This document shows positions 1-1,481 of a DNA stretch of 14,800 nucleotides, piece after piece. Within the stretch, counting starts at the first letter, position 1; the number at the start of each line of letters is the position of its first letter. The notes beneath the pieces were generated by a model that was not told the origin of the DNA, did not search any database, and was given only the letters and a program-made list of their open reading frames with translations. Made by a program: the position numbers and the translations under genes. The stretch is taken from IMG/VR virus record IMGVR_UViG_2526164631_000021; one strand, written 5' to 3'. This DNA is from a virus (lineage: Duplodnaviria > Heunggongvirae > Uroviricota > Caudoviricetes).

Positions 1-561
1 AATCCACGATGTGCATGCAAGAGTGCCCACCGACATCACCACGGAAGCCCTGCAGCGTATCGGTGAACTGTATGCCATAGAGGCAGAAGTCCGGGGATGT
101 ACAGCAGAACAGCGTCTGGCGGCAAGAAAAGCCAGAGCTGCGCCACTGATGCAGTCACTGTATGACTGGATACAGACTCAGATGAAAACACTGCCGCGTC
201 ACTCGGATACGGCAAAAGCGTTCGCATACCTGCTGAAACAGTGGGATGGCCTGAACGTGTACTGCAGTAATGGCTGGGTGGAAATCGACAACAACATCGC
301 AGAGAACGCCTTACGGGGAGTGGCCGTAGGCCGGAAAAACTGGCTGTTCGCGGGTTCCGACAGCGGTGGCGAACATGCGGCGGTGTTGTACTCGCTGATC
401 GGCACATGCCGTCTGAACAATGTGGAACCAGAAAAATGGCTGCGTTACGTCATTGAGCATATCCAGGATTGGCCGGCAAACCGGGTACGCGATCTGTTGC
501 CCTGGAAAGTTGATCTGACCTCTCAGTAAATATCAATACGGTTCTGGCGAGCCGCTTACGT
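1..561 (+). mobile_element. IS66-family insertion sequence, right-hand portion only (left part outside window)
   Basis: The ORF open from the window edge translates to the conserved C-terminal region of IS66-family transposases. The element ends at ~555-561 with ...CGCTTAC, the reverse complement of the GTAA-initiated terminal inverted repeat typical of IS66-family elements (recalled, not searched). Confidence 0.8.
2..529 (+). CDS. IS66-family transposase (TnpC-like), C-terminal fragment; 5' end lies outside the window
   Basis: The frame is open to the window start. The translation ...[67 protein letters not shown]... matches the IS66 transposase C-terminus from memory. Confidence 0.85.
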
Positions 562-1415
562 ATATTTCCTCCATTAATCATAAAGTGAGCAGCAAAGGTA
601 TGGCGTAGAACATGTACAGCCTGTCCTTTTGGTAGGTCTGGCTTAACACTGCGAAGCACCTTGCGATATTCCTCATAATTGACGTCAAACAAAAGGCCGG
701 ATTTCTTTGTTTTGATCTCACTAACAACTTCATCAGAGACAGGAATAATTCGAACTTTTCCGTTTTTAGTTTTGTTAAACGTCACGCGATTATTGATGAT
801 GTGTTCCGCGCGCAGATTTTTCGCTTCTCCCCATCTCGCCCCAGTACTGAGACAAAGTAGCGTAATCCGCCGGGCATCACCGCTTACTGCATCCAGTAAT
901 TTGGCGATTTCTTCCGTGGTGAGATACGTCATTTCGGGTGATTTTCGTTTCAAAGAGGGGAGGGCGCGGAGCGGATTTTCTCCGTGAAATTCCCCGGCAT
1001 TTGCCAGGAGTGTAAACATTCCTCCGAGATCCGACTCATCACGCCGAACAGTAGACTCTTTTACTCCCAAGGATAAACGGGAGCTTCGATAAGCGGCCAT
1101 GAAACGAGCATTAATCTGGCTAACCCTTGGATCATTCATTTCTTTGATGATTTTTTTCAACCTGGTTAGAACGCCGTTAGCATATGGCTTATTGCGTCCA
1201 CCCAATTCCCACCATAACGGAAGCAGATCTGAGAGATGACGTTGCTCTGTTGGCTTTTCAAGCCATTCCTTATCGTGCATGTGGCTGAGAACATAACGCT
1301 CAAAGGCCACTGCATCTGCCTTTTTCTTAAAAATCCGCTGAATCCGACGTCCACTTCGGCCACGCGGTCTAACATCCACTTTATACCGTCCACCATCGAG
1401 CGCTTTAATTGCCAT
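450..1415 (-). pseudogene. int: P2-type tyrosine integrase, 3'-truncated by the IS66 insertion
   Basis: Translation from the ATG at 1415 (GGAGGG RBS upstream) reads MAIKALDGGRYKVDVRPRGRSGRRIQRIF...LCLSTGARWGEA...HVLRHTFAAHFMINGGNI, co-linear with P2 Int as I remember it. Genuine sequence stops at ~562, where the frame runs into IS66 terminal sequence and continues as unrelated residues to a stop at 450. The segment that should carry the catalytic Tyr (after the HxLRHT box) is absent. Confidence 0.8.
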
Positions 1416-1481
1416 TGGCAAGCCCTCCGGTGAAACGAGGAAAGACATTTCCAGTTTGTAAAACGTAAGAATAATAAAGGG

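Follow-up and report, generated by a model that had tools for sequence, protein, structure and literature searches.

The locus studied here raises two questions: whether the integrase gene of a P2-like prophage was interrupted by a simple insertion or lost its 3' end together with the adjacent flank, and whether the prophage can still leave the chromosome by means of its own enzyme. The window, i.e. the whole stretch of 14,800 nucleotides that was analysed, ends within an insertion sequence (IS), and the far side of this element was taken from two near-identical complete genomes, E. coli O111:H2 12A and FDAARGOS_1059. Compared with 12A, the window has a single mismatch in its first 10 kb and 8 differences over 14.8 kb. 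According to the codon map of the window, the integrase gene (int) lies in a minus-strand open reading frame of 332 codons (450-1448). The ATG at 1448 merely adds 11 in-frame codons ahead of the true int start, the ATG at 1415 (MAIKALDGGRY...), with which the starts of aligned homologues agree. The final genuine int codon is ATA at 561-563, encoding Ile285 in the numbering of the intact 329-aa protein, which reads ...HFMINGGNI up to this point, and base 560 supplies position one of the following int codon (CTT in the intact allele). From base 559 downwards, the hybrid tail reads RKRLARTV... and is encoded antisense to the last part of tnpC, the transposase gene; the alignment revealed no homology to integrases in the 36 residues after Ile285. 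The coordinates of all features are collected in Table 1.

Table 1. Features at the int-proximal end of the window, in window coordinates
Feature	Position	Strand	Basis
Right-hand 559 bases of IS679 (IS66 family)	1..559	+	Pfam; RefSeq annotation in 12A/FDAARGOS_1059; IRL/IRR comparison
IS-encoded tail of the hybrid open reading frame (36 codons, stop at 450-452)	450..560	-	Codon map
Right copy of the 8-bp target-site duplication, GTATATTT	560..567		Both junctions compared with the empty site (MSI001)
int codons 1-285, P2-type tyrosine integrase	561..1415	-	Pfam; nucleotide identity; alignments to 5c6k/5dor and L-413C Int
P2 C-type immunity repressor (HTH)	1482..1784	-	Pfam HTH_31/HTH_19/HTH_3; annotation; gene order as in L-413C
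Cox-type excision/directionality factor	1880..2206	+	PF10743 Phage_Cox

The portion of int that is retained in the window still has the two-domain organization of P2-type tyrosine recombinases, with Int_N (5.3e-23) followed by Phage_integrase (PF00589; 1.7e-09) in the Pfam search of the open reading frame, and codons 1-285 take in most of the catalytic domain in addition to the arm-binding and core-binding parts. The PF00589 match ends at profile position 148 of 172, or at 144 of 172 when the genuine 285 codons are used alone, whereas the intact allele is covered from 2 to 169 and L-413C Int also reaches 169. In the aligned window protein, R194 (TGARWGE), H268 and R271 (HVLRHT) are kept. H294 (MGH) and Y303 (TMTYAH) are encoded solely in a 44-codon 3' fragment of int beyond the IS, and the catalytic domain of the window copy is thus incomplete, without the second His or the nucleophilic Tyr. 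Tyr303 is regarded as the nucleophile because in the alignment it falls on the Tyr that is conserved among tyrosine recombinases, the P2-type enzymes included. Residues 47-327 of the intact allele align with the solved integrase 5c6k (1.6e-96), and 5dor aligns too; the 5c6k alignment covers ...NGGNILTLQRIMGHATIQQTMTYAHLAP, which spans the lost segment. The aligned stretch reads ...HVLRHTFAAHFMINGGNI before the breakpoint and LTLQRIMGHATIQQTMTYAHLAPDFLQ... after it, with H294 and Y303 on the far side. The two entries belong to the structural study of P2 integrase that PMC8138268 cites.

An earlier note, made from the letters of the window, had described int as reading from its ATG at 1415 to about 562 and then entering an IS66 repeat, with loss of the segment that carries the catalytic Tyr. 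The layout is borne out by the codon map, whereas the breakpoint proposed there was two bases off. The loss of the Tyr segment is upheld by the alignments and by the profile coverage: homology to P2-type Int ends at Ile285, and in the stretch 450-562, in which a Tyr-bearing C-terminus might have been encoded, everything up to base 559 is IS-derived and without homology. As judged by these comparisons, the window int is a pseudogene of the P2-type tyrosine recombinases and non-functional as a member of that family.

The assignment of the interrupting element to the IS66 family, which had been proposed as well, also stands and can be narrowed to IS679 (Han et al. 2001, J Bacteriol 183:4296). In the window, the 3' end of tnpC occupies the plus-strand frame 2..529 (stop at 527-529) and encodes the C-terminal 175 residues of the IS66 transposase; bases 2-529 match DDE_Tnp_IS66 (PF03050, 6.9e-37) and DDE_Tnp_IS66_C (PF13817, 1.5e-16). 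The right end of the element is at base 559 (...GCTTAC), where an imperfect terminal inverted repeat finishes ...GCCGCTTAC. The complete IS679 of 2704 bp is located at L001 5856-8559, starting GTAAGCGCATC... and finishing ...GAGCCGCTTAC. Comparison of the left and right inverted repeats (IRL, GTAAGCGCATC...; IRR, GTAAGCGGCTC...) showed that both start with GTAAGCG. The NCBIfam models applied to L001 detected TnpA (NF038385, 6.3e-85), TnpB (NF033819, 5.2e-38) and the transposase (NF033517 transpos_IS66, 2.7e-142), where tnpA and tnpB, the accessory genes, precede tnpC and lie outside the window. Thus the element combines these accessory genes with a TnpC-type DDE transposase that has a C-terminal element, and with GTAAGCG repeats bordered by an 8-bp duplication, a duplication length that has been reported for IS66 (PMC6778807). 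Its identity as IS679 is based on annotation, on the NCBIfam models and on 100% identity, over all 2704 bp, with several copies on plasmids whose annotation reads IS679 family. A resident plasmid is a plausible donor, since an identical IS679 is present on plasmid CP066034.1, an accession number next to the one given to the FDAARGOS_1059 chromosome (CP066032.1). Within the IS679 transposase gene, one C/T difference, at position 194, sets the window apart from both finished genomes, and the window thus derives from a third assembly that is closely related to them. A scan for promoters and terminators around the junction gave chance-level counts (4 against 2.5 expected, and 2 against 2.9) and lends no support to read-through out of the IS into int or C.

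Strain MSI001 carries the empty site, in which the uninterrupted int reads ...GGAGCGTAAGTATATTTCCTCC... and, in the junction comparison, also ...GCGTAAGTATATTTCCTCC..., and both junctions were compared with it. The left copy of GTATATTT is at L001 5848-5855, outside the window, and the right copy is at 8560-8567; the same two junctions were found in further independent assemblies (L010 and L011). Because it was compared with the empty site in MSI001, the IS boundary at 559/560 is, on this evidence, not a chance match. A boundary at 554, where blast matches start, was considered and rejected, as the IS end (GCTTAC) and int (GCGTAA) merely happen to agree there at 4 of 6 bases. Taking out the IS together with one copy of GTATATTT recreates the intact 329-aa allele exactly. 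On the strength of this reconstruction, the event is a simple IS679 insertion with an 8-bp duplication, and no IS-mediated deletion is involved.

The gene order in both near-identical genomes is pheA, pheL, a 141-bp int fragment, tnpA, tnpB, a gene annotated 'IS679 family transposase' and the large int fragment. The 141-bp fragment is flagged 'missing N-terminus' in the annotation of both 12A and FDAARGOS_1059, and the missing 44 int codons, beginning LTLQRIMGHATIQQTMTYAHLAP..., are found past the far IS end. The earlier note had expected attL and the rest of int beyond the IS, and the other IS end, the 44 codons and attL are indeed all there in these genomes. The 8-bp duplication that it anticipated was recovered as matching copies of GTATATTT on both sides, although at 560-567 and not at 562-569. 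A tRNA or att site had also been suggested as a landmark: the 27-bp attL core was found, but the neighbouring host feature is the raiA terminator beside pheL and not a tRNA gene. The alternative offered in that note, that an IS-mediated deletion or rearrangement took away the int 3' end and attL and left the prophage truncated at its left end, would be in line with the ability of IS66 elements to mediate deletions between copies (PMC6778807) and with the many IS66-family copies in these genomes, at 15-16 places per record. Such a deletion is nevertheless extremely improbable: identical 8-bp sequences are present at both IS ends, base-by-base colinearity with the intact allele holds in the flanks, and the int 3' fragment, the attL core and pheL come straight after the IS, and for the near-identical genomes the intact duplication and the colinear flank already refute it. 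There is likewise a next to negligible chance that the junction is an assembly artefact created by a mis-join via the repeated IS. Homopolymer indels in the window terminase gene, relative to the two finished genomes, do suggest an error-prone assembly, but the same junction is present on 11 contigs from independent assemblies, two finished chromosomes among them, and both IS ends fall within int, with a proper target duplication at their borders.

In the E. coli chromosome, which is of O111:H2 type, the prophage is flanked by pheL and raiA. Its P2-type genes encode a C-type repressor, Cox, replication endonuclease A (GPA), portal, terminase, GPO, P2-family capsid and contractile tail proteins, and ogr is also present. 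Their arrangement (C repressor and int, a divergent cox-...-A block, the Q/P pair, capsid and tail genes, ogr) is that of P2-like prophages (Peduoviridae). The repressor gene is upstream of int on the same strand and, by analogy with P2, would form the C-int operon with it. The cox gene is apparently intact; the RefSeq name at its position in related genomes is 'Cox family DNA-binding protein'. An att site adjacent to int, with its core at both prophage ends, was identified outside the window. The 27-bp core, ACAAAAAACGCGCCCGAAGG[C/T]GCGTTG, occurs as attL at L001 5600-5626 and as attR at L003 26659-26685, and it is single in K-12 (L007, about 3520-3546), where it coincides with the intrinsic terminator hairpin after raiA, the place at which the annotation of the sRNA RaiZ has its 3' end. 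The attR copy has the host version of the core, and the attL copy is a one-base variant that would sit just downstream of int. Both att sites, like the repressor and cox, look intact. Further along the window, ParM and a ParR-like partition gene are encoded at 8407-9366 and 9371-9682, after replication gene A. Inside the 129-kb plasmid pCREC455-3 (NZ_CP183151.1, L013 100-34271), a near-identical phage was observed whose int is intact; its neighbours there (tail fibre, baseplate and a large transglycosylase) look like those of a P1-type phage-plasmid, and the phage apparently interrupts a gene at that location.

It is highly likely that, taken as a whole, the IS679 insertion split int and thereby locked the prophage. 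A complete 2704-bp IS679 transposed into codon 285/286 of int in the P2-like prophage, duplicating the 8 bp GTATATTT and splitting the gene into codons 1-285, joined to 36 IS codons, and a remainder of 44 codons stranded 2.7 kb away beside attL. The truncated Int keeps its DNA-binding parts and would be unable to form a phosphotyrosine intermediate. Excision and re-integration by the enzyme of the prophage itself would then no longer be possible, although both att sites, the repressor and cox seem intact. The sequence comparisons show the anatomy of the locus, the duplication, the lost residues and how rare and recent the event is. From them we strongly infer that self-excision has very probably been lost and that the prophage is probably locked in the chromosome, because the nucleophile is gone and a second related int is undetectable. 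It is very unlikely that the prophage is still mobile, be it through an integrase supplied in trans by another element or through residual activity of the truncated protein. Precedent for the former exists in O157 Sakai, where defective prophages are mobilised via prophage-prophage interactions (PMC2669165), and the apparently intact att sites, cox and repressor would favour it. Against continued mobility, both Tyr303 and His294 have been lost to an IS-encoded tail without homology, and word-11 blastn, which covers relatives above about 65% nucleotide identity, found no second int-like place in 12A or FDAARGOS_1059. Since there is a single int-like place per affected chromosome, a cognate helper integrase appears unlikely there; an integrase below about 65% nucleotide identity that recognises these att sites is also unlikely. 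Moreover, the Sakai prophages with a disrupted int (Sp3, Sp11 and Sp12) were predicted to be non-excisable, and the nine prophages that produced circular forms did not include them (PMC2669165). In rare cases the IS may be lost precisely, and int would then be restored.

The int allele is present in 125 of the 5426 complete E. coli genomes, and the stretch around the insertion point is continuous in 123 of these and split only in 12A and FDAARGOS_1059. In a large protein collection, the hybrid 321-aa protein was found on 11 contigs and the intact 329-aa allele (WP_000974887.1) on at least 1000. The IS679 insertion is, by this comparison, lineage-specific, and it is also recent, as judged from the retained 881 int bases, which match the intact alleles of many strains at 100% identity. 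A second insertion in the same gene was identified in strain CDE6306 (NZ_CP191552.1, L008 803-3501). It consists of ISCro1, another IS66-family element of about 2699 bp, in the opposite orientation and with its own 8-bp duplication, GGGCATCA, at the window-equivalent positions 872-879. Two IS66-family insertions among 125 genomes are mildly suggestive, and their number is too small to make a case for targeting or selection. A speculative reading, to which we give only a slim chance, is that int loss represents a selected immobilisation of the prophage lineage rather than neutral decay, with the truncated Int acting as a dominant-negative att-binding protein; it draws on the independent insertion of two different IS66-family elements, IS679 and, in CDE6306, ISCro1, into a single 1-kb gene within the set of 125 genomes. 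The truncated Int, with its arm-binding and core-binding parts, is presumably still made from the repressor operon. Were this reading true, the catalytically dead Int would block integration or excision of related phages, and the host would keep the cargo of the prophage (ParM/ParR, Hok and the methyltransferase).

Several other irregularities were observed in this prophage and its relatives. The gene for the terminase large subunit (window 12879-14630, minus strand) is broken into three open reading frames in the window and forms one 583-codon open reading frame in 12A and FDAARGOS_1059. Three single-base homopolymer indels are involved, namely an extra C at 13199, a missing A after 13896 and a missing T after 14510; a fourth indel, at 14710, is intergenic. 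The terminase indels may represent either sequencing error in the source of the window or a second inactivating lesion of the prophage. The tail block FI-FII-E-E'-T-U is on the strand opposite to D and ogr (L003 17508-23083 versus 23189-24653; also in L006 and L013), and it adjoins a Hin/Cin-type invertase gene in 12A and MSI001, with none annotated there in pCREC455-3. D is annotated as 266 aa in RefSeq, and its open reading frame is about 390 aa. The inverted FI-U block and the short D were considered as further damage and rejected: the D frame is full length, its short form being a choice of annotation, and the inversion is a lineage trait because three related prophages share it. In MSI001, the methyltransferase gene of the related prophage also contains an IS66-family element.

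The IS is a known one, the interrupted gene and the prophage are of known types, and the event is a textbook simple insertion that is part of ordinary prophage decay. No new biological question is opened by it, and its value lies in annotation and in the prediction of prophage mobility. The disruption of int is already visible in RefSeq, where the small fragment is marked as a partial integrase. The pseudogene flag is placed only on this small 3' fragment, and the 321-aa Int-IS679 hybrid (WP_024182697.1), which has an 80-base overlap with the transposase gene at the end of the latter, is called a normal 'phage integrase'. The listing of the hybrid as an ordinary integrase could mislead automated calls of prophage activity. 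As for mobility, the P2-like prophage of this O111:H2-type lineage should be regarded as grounded, in the sense that its own enzyme would not excise it, despite the intact appearance of nearly all of its genes.

When compared with known systems, this copy of IS679 shows nothing unusual: it shares its 2704 bp, tnpA-tnpB-tnpC organization and GTAAGCG termini with annotated IS679 copies, and its 8-bp duplication has the length reported for IS66. The window int has the domain order of P2-type integrases (5c6k, 5dor and L-413C), namely an arm-binding N-terminus, Int_N and the catalytic domain, and the gene is likewise located downstream of the C repressor and beside the att site. The motifs ...LRHTFA.HFM.NGGNI...LGH...Y.AH.AP are conserved in the int family compared; the window copy differs in ending at Ile285, without His294 and Tyr303. 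P2-type integrases of phages in the collection have about 52% identity to that of the window prophage; a protein search of this collection with int returned relatives at 64% identity or less, and megablast of the int fragment against the phage DNA of the collection returned no match. The gene order of L-413C (L014) is the same as that of the window prophage, save for the FI-U block, which is colinear with D and ogr in L-413C and inverted in the window prophage lineage. A close parallel comes from the E. coli O157 Sakai prophages Sp3, Sp11 and Sp12 (Asadulghani et al. 2009, PMC2669165), in which int is likewise disrupted, by an IS or by mutation, and which are predicted to be locked while other functions persist. 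In contrast to these, the prophage described here is P2-like, and its insertion is clean, recent and fully reconstructible.
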